A DNA stretch of 48,980 bases from a phage, in the sequence record NC_105619.1, one strand, 5' to 3'. Below the pieces are notes generated by a model. That model was not told where the DNA came from. It did not search any database and was given only the letters and a program-made list of their open reading frames with translations. A program made the translations under genes and the position numbers. Each line of letters opens with the position of its first letter. Positions within the stretch are counted from its first letter, which is position 1. Of this stretch, positions 5,886-48,980 are shown piece after piece.

Positions 5886-6653
5886 ATGGCTTACGAAAAT
5901 TTAATGTTGCGCCCGGCGTGTCCTGGAAATCTTTCCGATACTTCAACCTACAATATTGATGGTGCTTGCGTTGCGCAGGGTGATATTGAGTTCGGCTCGG
6001 CGGTACAGGTTATCGGGATCGTTGATGGTGTTAAAGTAGTCACGGCGCTTACTGATGGTGGAACTCCTTACGGTATAGCTTTCCGTTCCCAATATGAACA
6101 CCTGAGCGGTAAAATCTTAGACGGCGAAGTGTGCAACGTAGTTTCTCACGGTCGCATGTGGGCGCTTACTTCTCTTGATGAGGCTCCCGGCTTATTCTCA
6201 AAGTTGCAATTTGGATCTGGTGGCGTTGTTACTGGTGGATCTGGTTCCGTAGGTTGGACCTTCGCGGGTGGCTTTGTTAAGCATGAAGACGGCTACATCA
6301 TTGAGGTTCAGGTGAAACAAAATGCTTTCATCGTCCCACCGCCGCCGCCTCCAGTTGTTCTTGTTGAATCAGCTACGATCACTACCGACAAGGAAAGTCC
6401 TCAGCCGAACAACGTTACGATTCAGTGCGTAGCTAATGTTCTTCCGGTGAACGCTGATGATAAAACTGGCAAGTGGTCAATTGACGCCACCAACATTGCT
6501 ACTGTGGATCCTGACTCCGGTTTGGTTACTCCTGTAGGTGGAGAAGTCGTCGGTAATTTCAGTATTACCTGGACGGCTAATGATGCCAGCAAGACTAAGG
6601 CTACTATTGCTTATCGCGTCGAGGCAGTTCCAACTCCAGAAGATGAGTCATAA
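5886..6653 (+). CDS. capsid decoration-like protein, paralog 2, with C-terminal Ig-like (Big_2-type) domain
   Basis: Start at internal ATG (RBS GGAGAAA); N-domain paralogous to 5349..5825; PPPPPPVV linker then Big_2-like pattern (..VTIQCVANVLPVNADD..WSIDATNIATVDPDSGLVTPV..). Confidence 0.5.
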   Translation: MAYENLMLRPACPGNLSDTSTYNIDGACVAQGDIEFGSAVQVIGIVDGVKVVTALTDGGTPYGIAFRSQYEHLSGKILDGEVCNVVSHGRMWALTSLDEAPGLFSKLQFGSGGVVTGGSGSVGWTFAGGFVKHEDGYIIEVQVKQNAFIVPPPPPPVVLVESATITTDKESPQPNNVTIQCVANVLPVNADDKTGKWSIDATNIATVDPDSGLVTPVGGEVVGNFSITWTANDASKTKATIAYRVEAVPTPEDES

Positions 6654-6691
6654 CACAAAAACACTTTGACGCTTTAACAAAAAGTGCTATT
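6647..6691 (-). promoter_or_regulatory. reverse-oriented copy of the TAGCA-N5-TGTTA promoter module (antisense to late genes)
   Basis: On minus strand AATAGCACTTTTTGTTAA + 22 nt + TATGAC (preceded by TGt). Confidence 0.35.
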
Positions 6692-6696
6692 ATTGA

Positions 6697-10373: not shown

Positions 10374-10408
10374 GGGGGCTTGCGCCCCCTTATTCATTTC
10401 TGTAAAAT
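10374..10408 (+). promoter_or_regulatory. terminator hairpin with embedded promoter (TTGCGC-N17-TAAAAT)
   Basis: GGGGGC-TTGC-GCCCCC hairpin; TTGCGC spans loop and stem, exactly 17 nt, then TAAAAT preceded by TG. Confidence 0.5.
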
Positions 10409-10409
10409 C

Positions 10410-10454
10410 ATCGTATCAACTTTGCACTATTCTCTTTTAACAAAAAGTGCTATT
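10410..10454 (-). promoter_or_regulatory. reverse-oriented copy of promoter module (antisense to major tail protein gene)
   Basis: Minus strand AATAGCACTTTTTGTTAAAA + 22 nt + TACGAT (TGa-TACGAT). Confidence 0.35.
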
Positions 10455-10474
10455 AACCAATCAGGAGAAATATC

Positions 10475-16608: not shown

Positions 16609-16644
16609 GAGTCCACCGATAAATAGCACAAAAAGGTAAACATC

Positions 16645-19600
16645 ATGATTCAAAAAGTGATAAGTGGATCTAAGGGTGGGTCACAGAAGCCTCATAACCC
16701 AGTTGAGATGGAAGACAATCTAATCTCAATCAACAAAATCAAAATCCTGTTAGCTGTATCTGATGGTGAAATTGACGAAACATTCAGCCTAAAGCAGTTG
16801 ATGTTTAACTCAGTTCCGGTGCAAAACGAGGATGGATCGTTCAACTTCGAAGGGGTAAAGGCTGAGTTCAGGCCGGGAACTCAGACGCAGGAATACATCA
16901 AGGGCATGGAAGATAGCTCCAGCGAGGTAACTGTAAATCGTGAGGTTACTACCGATAACCCATACACGATCTCAGTAACCAACAAAACGCTGTCGGCAAT
17001 CCGTATAAAAATGTTCATGCCTCGCGGCGTACGAATTGAAAGTAACGGTGATAAAAATGGCGTAAGAGTTGAGTATGAGGTGCAACAAGCTGTTGATGGC
17101 GGCTCGTTTGAGACGGTGCTCACCGATGTAATCGAAGGCAAAACAATGTCAGGTTACGATCGAAGCCGTCGCGTAAACCTTCCGAACTTCAACAATCAGG
17201 TAATATTCAGAGTTGTTCGAAAGACTCCAGACTCTAACGACTCTAACGTTGTTGATGCGATCCAGGTAAAGAGCTATGCCGAGGTGATTGATGCCAAATT
17301 CCGTTACCCTCTGACAGGTCTTCTTTTCGTCGAGTTCGACTCGAAGATGTTCCCAAACCAGTTACCTACGATCTCAATTCGTAAGCGCTGGAAGATTGTA
17401 AACGTTCCATCAAACTACGATCCGGAATCACGAACCTACAACGGCAATTGGGATGGGACTTTCAAGAAGGCGTGGACTAACAACCCGGCATGGGTTCTAT
17501 ACGACCTGATGATTAATCAGCGCTACGGGCTGGATCAGAAGGAGCTTGGAATCTACGTCGATAAATGGGCGCTCTATGAGGCGGCGCAATATTGCGACCA
17601 GATGGTTCCCGACGGGAAAGGTGGTACGGAGCCTCGCTACCTTTGCGACGTGATAATTCAGTCACAGACTGATGCGTACAAGGTGATTCGAGATATTTGC
17701 TCAATATTCCGTGGTATGAGCTTCTGGAATGGTGAAAGCATCTCGGTAATCATCGACAGACCGCGTGAGCCTGCGTACATCTTCACTAACGACAACGTTG
17801 TTAATGGTGACTTCTCCTATACGTTCGCAAGCGAAAAGAGTATGTACACGACGTGTAACGTGATGTTTGACGACGAACAAAACATGTATCAACAGGACGT
17901 TGAGCCAGTATTCGATCGTGAGGCGACTCTGCGGTTCGGTAATAACGTAACCAGCATTACAGCGATAGGTTGCACGCGTCGAAGCGAGGCTAACCGACGA
18001 GGGCGATGGATTCTGAAGACCAACCTTCGCAGCACTACGGTAAACTTCGCGACCGGGCTTGAGGGTATGATCCCGACAATAGGTGATGTTGTGGCAATAG
18101 CCGACAACTTCTGGTCAAGCAACTTGACTATGAACCTGTCAGGGCGCTTGCTCGAAGTGTCTGGAAGCCAGATTTTCTTGCCGTTCCGGGTGGATGCGCG
18201 CGCAGGTGACTTTATTATCGTAAATAAGCCAGATGGCAAGCCCGTGAAGCGCACAATCTCAAGTGTTAGTGCGGATGGTAAGACTATAGAGATTAACATC
18301 GGATTTGGATTTCCTGTGAAGCCTAACACGGTATTCGCTATCGACCGCACCGACATTGCGTTACAACAGTACGTCGTGACAAAAATCGATAAGGGCGATG
18401 ATGACGAGGAATTTACCTACAAAATCACGGCGGTGGAGTACGATCCTAACAAGTACGATGAGATTGATTACGGAGTTAACATCGACGACCGACCGACGAG
18501 CATCGTTGAACCAGATCAGATCCCTAGACCGGAAAATGTTCAAGTATCCTCAGAGTCGAGAATCGTCCAGGGGATGAGCGTAGAAACGATGATTGTTAGC
18601 TGGGATAAAGTGCCGTACGCAGTTTTCTATGACGTACAGTGGCGAAAGGATAACGGCAACTGGCAAAATGTACCTCAGACGGCAAACAAAGAGGTTTACG
18701 TTGAGGGTATTTACGCTGGCAACTATCAGGTTCGCGTTCGCTCCGTAGCTGGTTCCGGTACGACTTCAGGATGGTCAAATATCGTAGCTGCGACGCTGAC
18801 TGGCAAGCAAGGTGAGCCGGGTCGACCGATTAACCTTACAGCTACGGATGATGTTGTTTTTGGTATCCGTACAAAATGGGGGTTCTCTGATGGTTCTGGA
18901 GATACGGCCTATACAGAGTTGCAACAGTCACCAGATGGAACAGTGGATAACGCAAGTTTGCTTTCTTTGATTCCGTACCCGCAGCATGAGTATTATCACT
19001 CACCGATGCCTGGAGGGAATATTGTGTGGTATCGTGTAAGGACGGTTGATAGGATCGGTAACGTGTCTCAGTGGACTGATTTTGTCAGAGGTATGGCATC
19101 AACAAACGTTGACGATATCATTGGGGAGATTTCTGTCGATATCGAAAACTCGCCGGGTTACGAGTGGCTTGTTGATAACGCAACCGACAACGCGGCGCAG
19201 AACGCAGCTAACGCAGAGGCAGCAATAGAAAACGCGCTCGCCAATGACAAAGACGCGATCTACATGAAGAAGGAGAACGGAAAACGAAAAGCTGAGTACA
19301 CGAAATCACTGAAACTTATTGCTGATGAGACGCAGGCGAGAGTGACGGCGATCGAGCAATTGAAGGCAAGTTTTGGCGATCAGATTAGCGCTAGCAACAG
19401 CGAATTGCGTGAAGTTATCGCAACTGAGACTGGAGCGCTATCGCGTGAAATTGACCAACTCAGGGCAGAGATTGGTGATGATATCCAGGCAAGTTTGACT
19501 GATATCAGAGAGGCTATAGCAAACGAGACTGAGGCGAGAACGCAAGCTGACTTGTCGTTAAGCGCGAGGCTTGGGAATAATGAGGCAGCACTTTCTCAAA

Positions 19601-22924: not shown

Positions 22925-22963
22925 TAATTAATGAGGTGTTATAATGCACCTCATACACCAATC
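22925..22963 (+). promoter_or_regulatory. TATAAT box framed by 8-bp inverted repeat ATGAGGTG/CACCTCAT
   Basis: Same -10-between-IR-arms geometry as the early promoter modules. Confidence 0.4.
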
Positions 22964-22976
22964 AGGAGAAGTTAAG

Positions 22977-25773: not shown

Positions 25774-25792
25774 AGTGTAAACTCCTTAAGTA

Positions 25793-25810
25793 AATAGCAC
25801 GAATTGCTAA
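25793..25810. repeat. palindromic box AATAGCACGAATTGCTAA in tail-fibre leader
   Basis: TAGCA-CGAAT-TGCTA dyad. Confidence 0.45.
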
Positions 25811-25816
25811 GCAATG

Positions 25817-25845
25817 ATTTTATCATTGTGATACCTGCCTTGCAA
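25817..25845 (-). promoter_or_regulatory. sigma70-like promoter for tail-fibre gene (TTGCAA-N17-TAAAAT on minus strand)
   Basis: Read on minus strand. Confidence 0.5.
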
Positions 25846-26808: not shown

Positions 26809-26868
26809 TTCCAGATCTCCAAATAAAAAACGCGTAGAAGGATGTTACCCCGCTACGCGTCGTTTGTT

Positions 26869-27321
26869 TTAACTAAAAATGCTATTGGTCGTCCCGATAT
26901 CTTCCTTCTTCACCACTCGCATAAACTTCTTGTTCTTGCATCGCTTCTCAAGGCACTTACCGTTACCGTCAAACTTGAGGTCGAATCGCAACCATGCCGC
27001 GCGGTATCCTTTACACCCCTGGCGACGGTAAGCGCGATGCGCAGCTTCAGCACCTTGCCATGAAATCATATTGCGTTCTTTCCAGCCCTGCACCGTCTGA
27101 TTGCTAACCTTCAGAGCCTTTGCGCAGGCCGCCGGGCCGCCGTAATATTCGATAAGGGCATCAAGTCTCGCTCGCAGTCCGGCGCGCGTTTCTTCTTTAT
27201 GAATATAGAACCCGCAACGCTGGCGAGGCTTTTTATCTTTACCGCGCCGTGTTCCGTTGTTACCATTGATGTGACGTTTATCGATTTCACCAGTTGATTC
27301 TGCGATACGTTGAATACTCAT
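26869..27321 (-). CDS. hypothetical basic protein with HTH-like segment
   Basis: ..AACAKALKVSNQTVQGWKERN.. resembles an HTH recognition helix; Lys/Arg-rich. Confidence 0.3.
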   Translation of the reverse strand: MSIQRIAESTGEIDKRHINGNNGTRRGKDKKPRQRCGFYIHKEETRAGLRARLDALIEYYGGPAACAKALKVSNQTVQGWKERNMISWQGAEAAHRAYRRQGCKGYRAAWLRFDLKFDGNGKCLEKRCKNKKFMRVVKKEDIGTTNSIFS

Positions 27322-27332
27322 CTTGATTCCCC

Positions 27333-27377
27333 TATAGCACTTTTTGCTAAAAACGTTTACTTTATGCCGTGTATTAT
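27333..27377 (+). promoter_or_regulatory. early promoter module (TAGCACTTTTTGCTA box + 22 nt + TATTAT) overlapping divergent minus-strand promoter
   Basis: Arms AACGTTTAC/GTAAACGTT flank the -10; minus strand reads TTGAAT-N17-TATAAT over the same -10. Confidence 0.5.
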
Positions 27378-27408
27378 AGCGTAAACGTTACAACGATTCA
27401 AAGGATTA

Positions 27409-29846: not shown

Positions 29847-29886
29847 CACTTTTTGTTAAAACTGCCGGAATGGAATCTGGCATTAT
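29842..29886 (+). promoter_or_regulatory. early promoter module upstream of dam
   Basis: AATAGCACTTTTTGTTAAAAC + 22 nt + CATTAT; box overlaps TAG stop of upstream gene. Confidence 0.5.
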
Positions 29887-30875: not shown

Positions 30876-30909
30876 TTGCTAAAAATACCCGGCGAAAGTC
30901 GGGTATAGT
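30868..30909 (+). promoter_or_regulatory. early promoter module
   Basis: AGCACTAATTGCTAAAAA + 22 nt (containing ACCCGGC-GAAA-GTCGGGT hairpin) + TATAGT. Confidence 0.5.
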
Positions 30910-32863: not shown

Positions 32864-32897
32864 TTGATAAAAACGCCCGAAGGGATTCGGGTATAGT
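32855..32897 (+). promoter_or_regulatory. early promoter module
   Basis: CGCACTAATTGATAAAAAC + 22 nt (CCCGAA-GGGA-TTCGGG hairpin) + TATAGT. Confidence 0.5.
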
Positions 32898-36431: not shown

Positions 36432-36460
36432 CACAATAAACTCCTTAGTTGACGGTGTGA

Positions 36461-36505
36461 ATGATACACCGCCAATGTTACACGCGTTTTGCAAAAAGTG
36501 CTATT
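36461..36505 (-). promoter_or_regulatory. early promoter module (minus strand)
   Basis: AATAGCACTTTTTGCAAAAC + 22 nt + TATCAT; arms GGTGT/ACACC flank -10. Confidence 0.5.
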
Positions 36506-36933: not shown

Positions 36934-36960
36934 TCCTGATTGGTTATCTTGAATAAGGCC

Positions 36961-37005
36961 ACTTTATCAAATGACCTTACGGCAATATTAACAAATCGTG
37001 CTATT
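36961..37005 (-). promoter_or_regulatory. early promoter module (minus strand)
   Basis: AATAGCACGATTTGTTAATA + 22 nt + TAAAGT; near-duplicate of module at 43568. Confidence 0.45.
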
Positions 37006-37445: not shown

Positions 37446-37478
37446 TTTTAATTCCTTTATTTCGTTTGGTGTGGGAGT

Positions 37479-37525
37479 AATATACCTTACTCCCTATTTA
37501 TTGTCTTTAGCAATTAGTGCTATCA
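37479..37525 (-). promoter_or_regulatory. early promoter module (minus strand)
   Basis: GATAGCACTAATTGCTAAAG + ~23 nt + TATATT; arms GGGAGTA/TACTCCC flank -10. Confidence 0.45.
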
Positions 37526-39027: not shown

Positions 39028-39060
39028 TTTGTTTTTCCTCAATCTCGTTTCGATGAGGTA

Positions 39061-39105
39061 ATTATGCCAAATCACACCGATCGAGTTTTAACAAAAAGTG
39101 CTATC
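39061..39105 (-). promoter_or_regulatory. early promoter module (minus strand)
   Basis: GATAGCACTTTTTGTTAAAAC + 22 nt + CATAAT; arms TCGAT/ATCGA flank -10. Confidence 0.5.
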
Positions 39106-40053: not shown

Positions 40054-40075
40054 TTTTTAGCAAAAAGTGCTATCG
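40054..40075 (-). repeat. orphan copy of the box (GATAGCACTTTTTGCTAAAAA) without recognisable -10 at +22
   Basis: Read on minus strand within second AT-rich control region. Confidence 0.4.
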
Positions 40076-40399
40076 ATTACACTTTAACTTGTCACGATTG
40101 TAATATTTGTCTAGAATCGCCATTGTGACAAAATTACGCACTGTGACACCTCACAATATACATATAGATATATGTATATATATAATATATATAGTGTTTT
40201 TTTTATTTATATATATAGATAATTATATTGTAATGGGTGTGTATAGTTGTCTTACATTGTCTAGCGTACTGTTGGCATATTTCTATCTGCATGTTTATAT
40301 ATACAGTACTTTTTTGAGGGTCGTATATTTCTATATGGACTCTAGACAGCTAGACAAATGTTACACGGCTTAAAATCGGCTTGCAGGCATTGACAACTC

Positions 40400-40445
40400 T
40401 ACGTCGCGCTGTAACAATGGCAATTGTTGACACGTTATGACGCCA
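40400..40445 (+). promoter_or_regulatory. tandem sigma70-like promoters with perfect TTGACA -35 boxes upstream of first rightward early gene
   Basis: cattTTGACAactctacgtcgcgctgTAACAAT and aattgTTGACAcgttatgacgcc.. Confidence 0.4.
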
Positions 40446-40476
40446 TTTACACGCAAATAGACAAAGAGGATATATT

Positions 40477-40992
40477 ATGAGCAATACCAATCAGGAATTA
40501 AAAATCACCGACATGATTCGCCTAACCTGCGATGCGATGTACCGCGACAAAGGCATGAGCGAGTTCTCTTTCGTGGCTGATGATATGGCCCTGGAAGGAG
40601 CGCGCTTCTACTTCCGCAACCAGGATGTAAGCGATAGCGATCTTGAGTCTGCCGCTGCCGGATGGGTGGACCAGAACCAGGGCGAGGTAGAGAAGAGATT
40701 CAAGTCTGCTTTCATCACTCCGATCATTACCAGGCACTTTTGCAAGTACGGAAAGGTTGCAAAGGTGAAAGTGGGCCGGAATGACGCCGCAATTACGATG
40801 ATAACCGTTATCGTTACAGACGAAGAGTTTCCGGTGAAGAAGCGCCGCAGCCGGAAGAAAGTTAGCCTGGCCGACTGCCTGGATTCGTTCACGCCTGATA
40901 TTGATGATCTCGAAAAAGGTGATGTGACTGTAAGCACAGTGCGCGACCTGGTTCGCCAGATGAAAGCGCATATTGAGAAATGCGGACTGTAA
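40477..40992 (+). CDS. hypothetical early protein
   Basis: 171-aa ORF, RBS AAAGAGGA, first gene after control region. Confidence 0.5.
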   Translation: MSNTNQELKITDMIRLTCDAMYRDKGMSEFSFVADDMALEGARFYFRNQDVSDSDLESAAAGWVDQNQGEVEKRFKSAFITPIITRHFCKYGKVAKVKVGRNDAAITMITVIVTDEEFPVKKRRSRKKVSLADCLDSFTPDIDDLEKGDVTVSTVRDLVRQMKAHIEKCGL

Positions 40993-41265: not shown

Positions 41266-41305
41266 CACTTTTTGTTAAAACCGGATCGGGGTATCTTGAT
41301 ATAGT
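41261..41305 (+). promoter_or_regulatory. early promoter module
   Basis: AATAGCACTTTTTGTTAAAAC + 22 nt + TATAGT (TGa extended); arms GGGGTA/TACCCC flank -10. Confidence 0.55.
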
Positions 41306-41343
41306 TACCCCATCGAAACGAGATACCAATCAGAGGAATCACC

Positions 41344-42288: not shown

Positions 42289-42328
42289 CACTTTTTGTTA
42301 AAACGCGATCATGTGGTTGCGATATAGT
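42284..42328 (+). promoter_or_regulatory. early promoter module
   Basis: AATAGCACTTTTTGTTAAAAC + 22 nt + TATAGT; arms ATGTGGTT/AACCACAT flank -10. Confidence 0.55.
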
Positions 42329-42359
42329 AACCACATCGACAACGAACGAGGACGAGAAC

Positions 42360-42845: not shown

Positions 42846-42886
42846 GCACGAATTGTCAAATGGTGATTCGTCCTGACTGGTACAAT
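42843..42886 (+). promoter_or_regulatory. early promoter module (variant box)
   Basis: TAAGCACGAATTGTCAAA + 22 nt + TACAAT; arms GGTGATT/AATCACC. Confidence 0.45.
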
Positions 42887-42916
42887 CACCACATCAACCA
42901 CTAAGAGGAAATCATT

Positions 42917-43572: not shown

Positions 43573-43612
43573 CACGAATTGCTAAACCTTCCGCAAGGCC
43601 ATTTGATATAGT
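43568..43612 (+). promoter_or_regulatory. early promoter module
   Basis: GATAGCACGAATTGCTAAACC + 22 nt + TATAGT; arms AAGGCCA/TGGCCTT. Confidence 0.55.
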
Positions 43613-43652
43613 GGCCTTATTGAAGCATGGCAACCAATCAGAGGAATCAGCT

Positions 43653-44878: not shown

Positions 44879-44912
44879 GGGGAATCGGCTCTGAACGGTT
44901 CCCCTTTCTTTT
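44879..44912 (+). terminator. putative terminator
   Basis: GGGGAA..TTCCCC arms followed by TTTCTTTT. Confidence 0.45.
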
Positions 44913-45238: not shown

Positions 45239-45265
45239 AACCTATCAAGGGGAATGCGCTATGAT
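45221..45265 (+). promoter_or_regulatory. early promoter module
   Basis: AATAGCACGAATTGCTAAAAC + 22 nt + TATGAT; arms GGGGAAT/ATTCCCC. Confidence 0.55.
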
Positions 45266-45355
45266 TCCCCTACACCAACAAACGAGGAATCACTAATGAA
45301 ACACTTAATTTGCATTGAAACGCCTAACGATGAATACACTCTTCACGGAATATGA

Positions 45356-45742
45356 ATGTTCAAAGGTCACTACATGACAGCAAGCATTCATGATTCGCGT
45401 CTATGCGATGGCGATCTGGTGATTACATCAAAAGAAGTAAATCCGTACATTATGCAGAATCTTGGCGATAACGAATATATGGCCTACGGCTGCAACGCGG
45501 TGTACAAGCATATCAAGATCCGCAAGCGTGTCGTGCGTGCATTCAAGAAGATTGCAATGAAATACTGGAAGATGAGCAAGAAGGACGCCGGACGCTGGGC
45601 GCGCAATGTTGCTGACTCGTACTTCTATCGTAACGGTGAGTCATGCTACTTCCTGATCGATGAAATTATGGAAAACTACGGCGGCGACTTCGGTCAGTGT
45701 AACTTTGACGATTGGGCTGACTATGAGATCAGTTGTTGGTGA
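45356..45742 (+). CDS. hypothetical protein
   Basis: 128-aa ORF preceded by 19-codon mini-ORF with RBS GAGGAA (ATGAATG junction). Confidence 0.45.
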   Translation: MFKGHYMTASIHDSRLCDGDLVITSKEVNPYIMQNLGDNEYMAYGCNAVYKHIKIRKRVVRAFKKIAMKYWKMSKKDAGRWARNVADSYFYRNGESCYFLIDEIMENYGGDFGQCNFDDWADYEISCW

Positions 45743-45785
45743 TAGCACGAATTGCTAAAACTTGCTCAAGGGCATTTGTTAGAAT
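45741..45785 (+). promoter_or_regulatory. early promoter module
   Basis: GATAGCACGAATTGCTAAAAC + 22 nt + TAGAAT (TGt extended); arms AAGGGCA/TGCCCTT. Confidence 0.55.
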
Positions 45786-45825
45786 GCCCTTCGTTGAGTT
45801 AAGCAACCAATCAGAGGAATAAATC

Positions 45826-46437
45826 ATGGATAAAATCACAATTTGGGGCCAGACAATCAACCTGTTTCTCGGTACTCGCCGCGTGGCAATCTTTGACTTC
45901 GACGGAACACTGAGTGACGGCTCAAAACGTCTTCACCTGCTACCGACGAAAGATTTGCACTTGACGGAAAGCTGGTCTGAGTTCAACCGCGCGGCAATAT
46001 TTGACAATCCTATACGTAGTACGATTGATGTGATGAACTCTATGTTTGCCGCTGGGTATCATGTGATTATTTTAACCGGGCGAAGCGATGAGGTGCGTTA
46101 CGCATCTGAGTTATGGCTTAAGCATCACGGCGCGCGATATGACTACTTAGTCATGAGGCCGCATACCGACAACCGGAAAGACACGGTAATGAAAGAAGAG
46201 GCGGTGCGCGCGATCGGCATTGATAACATTCTGGCAGCCTGGGATGACTCACCGAAAATTATTCCATTATTCCGATCGCTTGGAATAACCACGTATGCCG
46301 TAGTTGACTATGGCGATAACGTTCACGATCATTTAAAATCTCACGGGGTGGATGGGGTTTGCAATCATGAACCATCTGAGCCGCTACCGCCATTTGGCGA
46401 TAAAATATGCATTAAGTGCAAGGAGTTATTGAAGTGA
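45826..46437 (+). CDS. HAD-superfamily phosphatase (polynucleotide-kinase 3'-phosphatase-like)
   Basis: Motif I ..VAIFDFDGTL.. (DxDGT), motif II ..IILTGR.., later ..AWDDS.. Confidence 0.6.
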   Translation: MDKITIWGQTINLFLGTRRVAIFDFDGTLSDGSKRLHLLPTKDLHLTESWSEFNRAAIFDNPIRSTIDVMNSMFAAGYHVIILTGRSDEVRYASELWLKHHGARYDYLVMRPHTDNRKDTVMKEEAVRAIGIDNILAAWDDSPKIIPLFRSLGITTYAVVDYGDNVHDHLKSHGVDGVCNHEPSEPLPPFGDKICIKCKELLK

Positions 46438-46545
46438 ACCTGTACGAATTTATTGCAGCACATCCGGTATTGACGGTTATCATCCTGTTAATCATCAATC
46501 ACACTATCATCAATGTGGCAAAATTATTTTTAGGGAGATACTAAC

Positions 46546-47118: not shown

Positions 47119-47158
47119 CACGAATTGCTAAAACGTCGATGTGGTGATTTGATATAGT
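47114..47158 (+). promoter_or_regulatory. early promoter module
   Basis: AATAGCACGAATTGCTAAAAC + 22 nt + TATAGT; arms GTCGATG/CATCGAC. Confidence 0.55.
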
Positions 47159-47191
47159 TACCTCATCGACAACCAAGAGAGACAAATCGAA

Positions 47192-48896: not shown

Positions 48897-48906
48897 TAAA
48901 CACTAA

Positions 48907-48966
48907 CCCGCTACGGCGGGTTTTTTTATGCCTGCAATATGGTAAAATAGCACTAAATGTTAAACG
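48907..48966 (+). promoter_or_regulatory. terminator hairpin (CCCGC-TACG-GCGGG + T7) followed by CAATAT/TAAAAT and a copy of the box, upstream of terminase small subunit
   Basis: Same hairpin arms as late modules but loop TACG; AATAGCACTAAATGTTAAAC at 48945-48966 then RBS. Confidence 0.45.
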
Positions 48967-48980
48967 AAGAGGATTGATTT

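Follow-up and report, generated by a model that had tools for sequence, protein, structure and literature searches.

Composite promoter/stem-loop cassettes, known as PeSLs, have been described in the T4-like phages RB49/phi1, PST/T4 and nt-1/KVP40 (Arbiol et al., 2010, PMC2839356; Comeau et al., 2014, PMC4122927). A PeSL has the order stop codon, AT-rich region, sigma-70 promoter, stem-loop, Shine-Dalgarno (SD) sequence and ATG, and its arms are of the GGGG...CCCC type with G-T pairs; one copy has been shown to have a terminator effect, and the cassettes have been proposed to take part in modular shuffling (PMC2839356, PMC4122927). For the T1-like phages TLS, T1, Rtp and Rogue1 a repeat, aaATAGCACnnnTTGnTAAAA, has been published (PMC11447400, 2024), whose role is left open in the portion of that paper available to us, with a stoperator, an enhancer site or an UP-like element being suggested. 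Here we analyze sequence record NC_105619.1 (48,980 nucleotides; this whole stretch is referred to as the window), which is from a T1-like phage (Tunavirus, Drexlerviridae), and describe hairpins that surround or abut the -10 element of the promoter modules to which this repeat belongs. The focal copy of our analysis lies at 45740-45828, before a gene that we call polynucleotide kinase (PNK) based on the annotation of its relatives.

The modules are compact, intergenic cassettes that are carried by most genes outside the late region. Each begins with the stop codon of the upstream gene, which falls within or beside the 21-nt repeat, and continues with a 22-nt spacer, an extended -10 (tGnTAtaaT), a 6-nt discriminator and the start site, after which come an unstructured 5' untranslated region (5' UTR), the SD and the ATG. 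A pattern scan found about 25 copies of the repeat in the window, on both strands, and alignment of the copies on the repeat revealed an exact 22-nt spacer followed by a -10-like hexamer (TATAGT, TATAAT, TAGAAT, CATAAT etc.). The repeat, its orientation and its intergenic position are those of the published element, which corresponds to the 5' part of our modules; as far as its available portion goes, the published account covers the repeat alone and mentions neither the fixed 22-nt spacing to an extended -10 nor hairpins (PMC11447400).

For comparison we used 72 T1-like loci retrieved with the kinase protein (52-98% identity), among which we take T1, TLS and Rtp to be included, and which contain 702 modules, 523 of them unique. 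The closest relatives of region 45300-46500 (88-95% identity) include the Shigella phages phiL and Shfl1 and Escherichia phage ADB-2. In the 72 loci a -10-like hexamer stands exactly 22 nt after the repeat in 483 of 580 unique copies (83%). The conservation of a G at -14 (518 of 555 related modules) and of TG (283) indicates that the modules are extended -10 promoters. There is no -35 hexamer at the usual 17 bp; the sole -35-like hexamer, TTGnTA, is found 22 nt upstream in 83% of copies, which is 5 bp too distant from the -10 for a normal -35 role, and the modules were not listed by a standard promoter scan. A C at -1 and an A at +1 are conserved in the family and, based on these bases and the spacing from the -10, we place the start site 7 nt after the hexamer, with the SD and ATG 19-35 nt further downstream. 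The 5' UTR (+1 to +36) of the related modules is less structured than its own shuffles (-1.38 versus -2.19 kcal/mol). GFP is expressed in uninfected E. coli from the upstream regions of T1 dam, pir and recE (PMC6737242), which is consistent with promoters that are read by the host polymerase, the cloned fragments being only presumed to hold modules.

The focal copy has the following features:

45740-45760, plus strand: 21-nt direct repeat tgATAGCACgaaTTGcTAAAA, the upstream promoter module, overlapping the TGA stop (45740-45742) of the gene at 45356-45742
45768-45776, plus strand: 5' arm AAGGGCATT, or AAGGGCA(TT), at about -24 to -16 from the predicted start site
45777-45785, plus strand: extended -10 TGtTAGAAT with -10 hexamer TAGAAT; TGTTAG forms the loop and AAT is paired in the 3' arm
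45783-45791, plus strand: 3' arm AATGCCCTT, or (AA)TGCCCTT, comprising the last 3 nt of the -10 and the whole discriminator and ending at -1
45792-45828, plus strand: predicted start site (about 45792-45793), unstructured 5' UTR, SD GAGGA (45814-45818) and ATG (45826)

The focal stem has nine Watson-Crick pairs and a 6-nt loop, and its arm geometry places the final three bases of the -10 in the stem instead of the loop. When folded as RNA the focal region reaches -17.3 kcal/mol (z = -4.4), with none of 200 shuffles as stable, and as single-stranded DNA its arms fold at -9.6 kcal/mol (z = -4.3).

Pairing around the -10 element and its compensatory changes

Window modules were scored for a perfect stem of 6 bp or more that encloses no fewer than 4 nt of the -10. 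For the null model the two flanks were shuffled separately and the composition of each was preserved, so a G-rich spacer facing a C-rich discriminator cannot account for the pairing excess. Eleven of 23 window modules have such a stem, while shuffles had a mean of 0.93 and a maximum of 5 in 1000 trials, and the rate of qualifying stems at 1500 genomic TANNNT sites is 5.5%. RNA folding, for which we used positions -30 to +6, gave z values of -2.4 or lower in 14 of 20 window modules. In the relatives a perfect enclosing stem of at least 6 bp is present in 42% of the 523 unique modules versus 3.3% of shuffles; when one mismatch is allowed, at least six Watson-Crick pairs are present in 57% versus 10% of shuffles. 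No Rfam family matched the window on either strand at its gathering score. The hairpins observed are confirmed as real, and as general across the related T1-like loci.

A sequence-only reading of the window had listed complementary arm pairs around the -10 in most copies, together with two hairpins with GNRA loops directly before the -10, at 30885 and 32875. Each arm pair in that list is present at or beside the position given for it and both GNRA-loop hairpins are real. Its statement on most copies needs one correction, as roughly one fifth of modules are weak or unstructured: 82% of related modules fold at -8 kcal/mol or better and 18% are weaker. The weakly structured copies of the window are mainly those that have no co-oriented upstream gene (6689, 10452, 40072 and 39867, all on the minus strand).

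Two classes of hairpin can be recognized. Class 1 draws one arm from the spacer and the other from the discriminator; its loop contains TGn and most of the -10, and its stem ends at -1. Class 2 consists of a tight, often GNRA-capped hairpin that lies wholly in the spacer and abuts the -10. In the modal geometry of the relatives the 5' arm starts at -24, the loop has 10 nt under strict pairing and the 3' arm ends at -1, which is 6 nt past the -10. Folding gives -10 to -18 kcal/mol, with loops of 4-8 nt once weak inner pairs are counted. A set of 318 hairpins with at least six perfect pairs contains 197 that enclose the -10, 59 that pair part of it, 60 that are wholly in the spacer and abut the -10, and 2 that are downstream of the start site.

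The arm pairs at the promoter of the PNK gene, in the source genome and at orthologous promoters, are:

AAGGGCA / TGCCCTT, source genome
AGGGGCA / TGCCCCT, orthologue
AGGAGCA / TGCTCCT, orthologue
AGGGGTA / TACCCCT, orthologue
GTGGGTA / TACCCAC, orthologue
AAGGGTA / TGCCCTT, orthologue with G·U
AGGGGCA / TGTCCCT, orthologue with G·U
AAGGGAA / ..., orthologue, disrupted
... / TTCCCCT, orthologue, disrupted

In the alignment of this family (17 sequences), 98.3% of cells are paired and four of the seven pairs have changed on both sides. Its covariation of 0.357, compared with 0.192 in shuffles, was reached by none of 500 shuffles, and controls in which the arms were slid are 32-57% paired. A second family, which includes the window copy at 42311, is 90.4% paired, with three of six pairs changed on both sides and a covariation of 0.201 versus 0.065 (0 of 500 as high). 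Consensus stems over 16 orthologue groups are 96.4% paired versus 35-45% when slid; the G·U count over these groups was not used, as it is biased by the folding method. These groups were formed by downstream gene, since clustering of the promoter cores by single linkage had merged 252 sequences into a single chain. Position-wise mutual information over all paralogues gave a weak signal (top anti-diagonal -24:-1, mean Watson-Crick excess 0.035) because the stems occupy different registers, and orthologue families were used instead. Both the claim of the sequence-only reading that pairing is preserved while sequence varies, and its prediction that complementary arms would be found at the orthologous promoters of homologous T1-like phages, are borne out, as the arms are retained there through compensatory changes. 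The comparisons support the view that hairpin pairing is under selection, with the sequence of the arms apparently free to vary.

Different phages can have unrelated promoter cores in front of the same gene and, in one orthologue group, class 1 and class 2 swap for one another upstream of the same gene, which suggests that the two classes share one function that is independent of a U-tract. As the cassettes show signs of shuffling, the inverted repeats could be DNA recombination signals or by-products of the shuffling, the fold itself having no role, and the PeSL authors speculated that GGGG...CCCC stems might be targets of a recombination protein. An arm-swap chimera of two families does exist: in this natural sequence, CCGGATCGGGATAACCTGGTATAGT joined to AACCCC, the 5' arm of the GGGATAA/TTATCCC family is combined with the 3' arm of the GGGGTT/AACCCC family by recombination within the -10, and the hairpin is broken. 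However, shuffling that breaks hairpins, as in the chimera, cannot create complementarity or the compensatory changes seen within families, and arms that differ in each copy provide no common recognition sequence. We consider it very unlikely that the repeats are only a matter of recombination.

Strand, carrier and possible role of the hairpin

The hairpins are not symmetrical with respect to strand. Among stems with one internal mismatch, collected by a search that was blind to the kind of mismatch, 32 have G·T or T·G and only 6 have A·C or C·A (p = 2e-5), the corresponding numbers in shuffles being 39 and 74. As RNA the sense strand gains 6.2 kcal/mol over its own shuffles and the reverse complement 3.6, and the greater gain of the sense strand persists in 93 representatives that are less than 70% identical (p = 6e-9). 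In addition, 18 of the 44 four-nt loops of spacer hairpins are GNRA. A cruciform, in which the hairpins of both strands form, should disfavor G·T and A·C equally, and the data therefore point to a single-stranded sense strand. The most likely carrier, judging from these asymmetries, is the RNA of transcripts that read through from upstream promoters rather than a DNA cruciform.

Since the stem usually ends at the predicted start site, a promoter's own transcript would lack the stem and the carrier would be RNA initiated upstream. Read-through of this kind is expected because upstream terminators are nearly absent, with none within 120 nt upstream of 549 of 553 modules. Modules with a co-oriented open reading frame (at least 60 codons) ending at the repeat have a mean of -12.3 kcal/mol, versus -9.1 for those without one (p = 0.006); the same test on perfect stems gave only 57% versus 41%, the version based on energy being clearer. 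There is no hairpin at the late-region antisense modules (6689 and 10452, minus strand), at the first leftward module (40072, minus strand) or at the canonical promoters at 40.1-40.4 kb. Only four modules come right after a terminator, and the three that are clearly past a strong one fold at -7.0, -7.4 and 0 kcal/mol, versus a mean of -11.8 for the rest, a sample too small to carry weight.

A structure in the DNA, either a cruciform or a hairpin of the non-template strand, might instead expose a single-stranded -10 to sigma-70 or to a phage factor. The geometry of the hairpins is tied to the promoter, with TGn and the -10 forming the class-1 loop and the stem ending at -1, the focal arms fold stably as single-stranded DNA, and the tolerance of G·T is compatible with a DNA hairpin if this is on the non-template strand only. 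Yet the 32 versus 6 mismatches are contrary to what a cruciform should give, and arms of 6-9 bp with loops of 6-20 nt make poor substrates for cruciforms. Moreover, in 119 of the 318 hairpins (~38%), including the focal copy, the -10 is outside the loop or partly paired, and hairpins are weak or absent at promoters without a co-oriented upstream gene, though these promoters would need equal help with melting. A hairpin in single-stranded non-template DNA is rejected only because we know of no process that exposes ~30 nt of the non-template strand at every promoter. The available portion of the TLS repeat paper reports no phage RNA polymerase gene in the T1-like/TLS group (PMC11447400). We judge a DNA structure to be highly improbable; of the two mechanisms that the sequence-only reading had offered, the RNA stem-loop in read-through transcripts is favored and the DNA hairpin that presents the -10 single-stranded is disfavored.

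Our preferred interpretation, to which we assign a probability of roughly 55%, is that the hairpin is an element of sense-strand read-through RNA that would serve as an intercistronic 3'-end stabilizer or processing boundary, and would be the Drexlerviridae counterpart of PeSLs. The coding end, the repeat, the -10 and the unstructured 5' UTR of a cassette are fixed, so that the spacer and discriminator would be the only positions free to vary, and these appear to be used in two ways, either for two arms that flank a looped -10 or for a tight tetraloop hairpin within the 22-nt spacer. The hairpin would fold in read-through RNA initiated at upstream promoters and would mark the end of the upstream cistron, where it would either impede 3'-to-5' exonucleases or form a processing boundary that determines how stable the upstream parts of the message are. 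In class-2 copies, which abut the -10, the U-rich -10 comes after the stem and a partial attenuator of read-through is plausible. As to the specific function, whether stabilizer, processing boundary or attenuator, these suggestions are our best guess from the sequence.

Several points weigh against this interpretation. The association with an upstream co-oriented gene is modest, given that 40% of the modules lacking such a gene nevertheless reach -10 kcal/mol or better. A hairpin in single-stranded non-template DNA would also explain the strand asymmetry, because G·T is the least bad mismatch in DNA. To block an exonuclease, 6-9 bp is a small stem. We found no transcript data for any T1-like phage, and start sites, read-through and RNA 3' ends are inferred; in addition, the related sequences share ancestry and our p-values overstate significance. 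The computations fit a stabilizer, a processing site, a pause site or an insulator alike. For the insulator idea, in which pairing between the C-rich discriminator and the SD is prevented by the 5' arm, the effect on SD accessibility in silico was marginal (0.479 versus 0.453, p = 0.04).

The stem-loops could also be terminators or insulators against upstream transcription, with each cassette transcriptionally isolated, as has been proposed and partly tested for PeSLs, one of whose stem-loops lowered lacZ approximately as much as rrnB T1 (PMC2839356). Supporting this possibility is the U-rich -10 region that follows class-2 stems, with at least five T in the next 8 nt in 30% of cases, as well as the U-rich tails of the copies at 29863 and 30885 and the TTTTTATTT that follows the minus-strand hairpin at 26829-26861. 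In contrast, the 197 enclosing and 59 overlapping hairpins average 1.2-1.7 T per 8 nt, class 1 being at 1.2, and only 3% of them have at least five T, and E. coli RNA polymerase requires a U-tract for intrinsic termination. A terminator scan of 36-49 kb flagged no sense-strand module hairpin, although it found the genuine terminators at 44879 and 48905, and the interchange of class 1 and class 2 before the same gene is a further point against termination. Class 1 is not a classical terminator, based on the absence of a U-tract, while the spacer class and the hairpin at 26829-26861 (minus strand) may attenuate. We regard a general role in termination or insulation as unlikely.

The genuine intrinsic terminators of this region, at 44879-44904 and 48905-48922, bound the rightward early gene arrays, and that at 48905-48922 is bidirectional (AACCCGC-TACG-GCGGGTT followed by a T-run). 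The minus-strand module at 26829-26887 has its -10 in the loop of a terminator-like hairpin, so that terminator and promoter are in one element. At the hairpin 37473-37494, which belongs to the leftward module at 37521, TATTTATT follows on the opposite strand and the terminator scan flags the antisense direction. Antisense terminators of this kind, in which a stem is combined with a T-run on the opposite strand, were considered as an explanation of the modules and rejected based on the G·U pairs and GNRA loops on the sense strand; the A-run of the repeat in class 1 is also 6-7 nt away from the stem.

In the T4 late genes e, soc and I-TevI, the promoter is inside a hairpin of the early read-through transcript that sequesters the ribosome-binding site. 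Translational masking of the same type has been weighed here, as the modules have the same outline, with the promoter inside the hairpin and the start site 3' of the 5' arm, so that the transcript of the embedded promoter lacks that arm. However, the 3' arm ends at -1 and the SD is 20-30 nt further downstream. The predicted unpaired probability of the segment from SD to AUG is 0.58 in a module's own transcript versus 0.48 in the read-through transcript for 18 window modules, 0.70 versus 0.66 for the focal copy and 0.53 versus 0.48 for 150 related modules. Translational masking is largely refuted by these in silico predictions, and we consider it hardly tenable.

Finally, the hairpin could be a co-transcriptional device, which forms in the nascent RNA and prevents sigma-70-dependent pausing or backtracking at the internal extended -10, or aids promoter clearance. 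Every internal promoter has a strong TGnTAnnnT on the non-template strand, and an element of this type is a known trigger of sigma-dependent pauses; the hairpins are directly upstream of the -10 element or around it, never downstream (setting aside the two of the 318 that are past the start site). This explanation is purely inferential, and the position of the hairpins is explained equally well by the scarcity of free sequence in the cassette. There is, in our estimation, only a slim chance that the hairpin blocks sigma-70 recapture and backtracking, such that read-through polymerases neither stall on nor occlude downstream promoters. The nascent stem would then fold at the moment when the bubble of the elongating polymerase holds the near-consensus extended -10, and would answer a difficulty particular to genomes composed of strong promoters in tandem. 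If it did, the promoter, the hairpin and the 21-nt repeat near -42 would be a single unit, and not a promoter that shares its space with a stabilizer.

Other modules and features of the window

The other hairpin-bearing copies of the window, with their folding z values, are as follows:

43595-43618, plus strand: hairpin AAGGCCATT / AGTGGCCTT around TATAGT (43607-43612); z -3.4
45248-45271, plus strand: hairpin AGGGGAAT / ATTCCCCT around TATGAT (45260-45265); z -3.3
41288-41311, plus strand: hairpin GGGGTA / TACCCC around TATAGT (41300-41305); z -2.5
42311-42336, plus strand: hairpin ATGTGGTTGC / GTAACCACAT around TATAGT (42323-42328); z -4.1, with family covariation
47135-47170, plus strand: imperfect stem GTCGATG.GGTGATT / AGTTACC.CATCGAC, with G·U pairs, around TATAGT (47153-47158); -18 kcal/mol, z -6.2
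42861-42891, plus strand: hairpin TGGTGATT / AATCACCA with a 15-nt loop around TACAAT (42881-42886); weak folding, z -1.4
22931-22954, plus strand: hairpin ATGAGGTG / CACCTCAT around TATAAT (22940-22945); z -6.0, spacer from repeat to -10 of 21 nt
27352-27389, plus strand: inverted repeat AACGTTTAC / GTAAACGTT with a 20-nt loop around TATTAT, in a divergent intergenic region; weak folding, z -1.6
30885-30906, plus strand: class-2 hairpin ATACCCGGC-GAAA-GTCGGGTAT with one G·U, abutting or overlapping TATAGT (30904-30909), then U-rich UAGUUAUUU; z -4.0
32875-32892, plus strand: class-2 hairpin GCCCGAA-GGGA-TTCGGGT directly 5' of TATAGT (32892-32897); z -2.6
29863-29882, plus strand: class-2 hairpin TGCCGGA-ATGGAA-TCTGGCA abutting CATTAT (29881-29886), then the U-rich run UUAUUAUUU; z -2.1
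37473-37494, minus strand: hairpin GGGAGTAA / TTACTCCC around TATATT; z -3.4
36953-36980, minus strand: hairpin GTAAGGTCATTT / AAGTGGCCTTAT around TAAAGT, containing G·U pairs and paralogous to the 43595 copy; z -4.1
36449-36475, minus strand: hairpin TTGGCGGTGT / ACACCGTCAA around TATCAT; z -3.6
26829-26861, minus strand: hairpin GACGCGTAG / CTACGCGTT around TAACAT, then TTTTTATTT; z -4.0
39050-39084, minus strand: imperfect stem TCGAT.GG.GUGAUU / AAUUAC.CC.AUCGA around CATAAT; z -2.5

The orthologues of the 47135 copy have 13 pairs, including three G·U, as read from the sequences, and the hairpin at 29863-29882 is upstream of a dam-like gene. Two complete modules, with the repeat, 22 nt, and TGn plus -10, are present on the minus strand at 6647-6692 and 10404-10455, where they run antisense to the rightward late-gene block that surrounds them. 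Both lack a hairpin, no gene is obvious downstream, and they may be antisense promoters.

Several features of the repeat and its surroundings are also of note. The repeat contains an imperfect palindrome, TAGCA-N5-TG(C/T)TA, that is centered near -42, the position of a class II activator site, and the variable base of TTGnTA is nearly always a pyrimidine (C 330, T 212, A 11, G 2). We rejected a sigma-54 reading of the repeat (GG-N10-GC) due to a misfit in spacing, the G and GC being 8 nt apart and not 10, and a T4 MotA-box reading because the repeat is 22 nt from the -10 and not 11-13. Two copies of the repeat, at 48948-48980 (running into position 1) and 16624-16647, have no -10 and are directly before an SD and ATG, those of the first gene of the window and of a 1149-aa gene at 16645, respectively, which indicates that the repeat can exist without the promoter half. 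A further copy, at 25792-25829 on the plus strand, is between two leftward genes but oriented the other way; the small inverted repeat GCAATGAT-TTT-ATCATTGT comes after this copy, which has no good -10. Within the 5' UTR and ribosome-binding site, the motif ACCAATCAG(A)GGA recurs in several cassettes (45806-45819, 43626-43640, 41322-41336 and 22956-22968), and the conservation of the cassette thus reaches beyond the start site.

A divergent control region at 40060-40480 is very AT-rich, with alternating ATATAT tracts, and has neither the repeat nor hairpins. It contains three matches to canonical promoters (-35/N17-18/-10) at 40089-40117, 40157-40186 and 40390-40418, which are likely the immediate-early promoters.

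Comparison with described systems

Intrinsic terminators resemble the hairpins of the modules in their G+C-rich stem and short, stable loop (GNRA), and in the U-rich sequence that comes after class-2 copies and the 26829-26861 hairpin on the minus strand. They differ from class 1, which lacks the U-tract and was not detected by the terminator scan. With T4 e, soc and I-TevI the modules have in common a hairpin that would be present only in transcripts initiated upstream, the promoter's own transcript being without the 5' arm; unlike the T4 hairpin, which masks the ribosome-binding site, the T1-like stem ends at -1 and leaves the SD accessible.

The repetitive REP stem-loops and the RNase III sites of T7 are similar in that an intercistronic hairpin of a polycistronic mRNA adjoins an internal promoter. 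The T7 sites, however, are duplexes of ~20 bp, often with an internal loop, whereas the stems here have 6-13 bp and are too short for RNase III, and in contrast to both systems the T1-like copies have no sequence in common and their function is as yet only proposed. In the N4-type hairpin promoter, or single-stranded DNA promoter, a phage RNA polymerase reads a DNA hairpin whose loop has 3 nt and in which bases of both stem and loop are conserved. The T1-like loops have 4-20 nt and hold a sigma-70 extended -10, and the arms are not conserved; for TLS, no RNA polymerase gene is reported in the available portion of the paper on its repeat (PMC11447400).

The T1-like phages (Drexlerviridae) are a common group that serves in phage therapy and is also a nuisance in laboratories, but their transcription program has barely been mapped, and we found neither hairpins in T1-like promoters nor T1-like start-site mapping in the searchable literature. 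Our analysis adds that ~20 promoters per genome have the repeat as their upstream half and an extended -10 at a constant distance of 22 nt from it, and that most of these promoters are wrapped in a hairpin that appears to be selected for pairing on the sense strand. The cassettes are clear targets for experiment and for phage genome engineering, in which swaps of cassettes that break the arms may carry a cost.

Of all the systems considered here, PeSLs, which the sequence-only reading had not mentioned, are the closest and share the anatomy of the T1-like modules. In both, the promoter is of the host sigma-70 type, the stem-loop is mostly between the upstream element and the -10 or overlaps the -10, and the arms vary between copies, being G-run/C-run with G-T pairs in PeSLs, while G·T is frequent in the T1-like modules. 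In both, the cassettes are concentrated among small accessory genes and appear to be exchanged between genomes. There are also differences, as PeSLs are from T4-like myoviruses and the modules described here from Drexlerviridae siphoviruses, and the -35/N17/-10 promoter with an AT-rich upstream region is replaced by a 21-nt repeat with TTGnTA 22 bp from an extended -10. The commonest T1-like stem has no U-tract, and the terminator role of one PeSL is unlikely for T1-like class 1. Covariation and strand asymmetry have been observed for the T1-like modules, while the available portions of the PeSL papers report no evidence of either kind. The T1-like cassettes are apparently a variant of the PeSL-type promoter/stem-loop cassette that is undescribed for T1-like phages. 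The T4-like and T1-like phages, two unrelated lineages, have converged on one composite cassette, which suggests a general design rule for genomes composed of tandem, individually promoted small genes.

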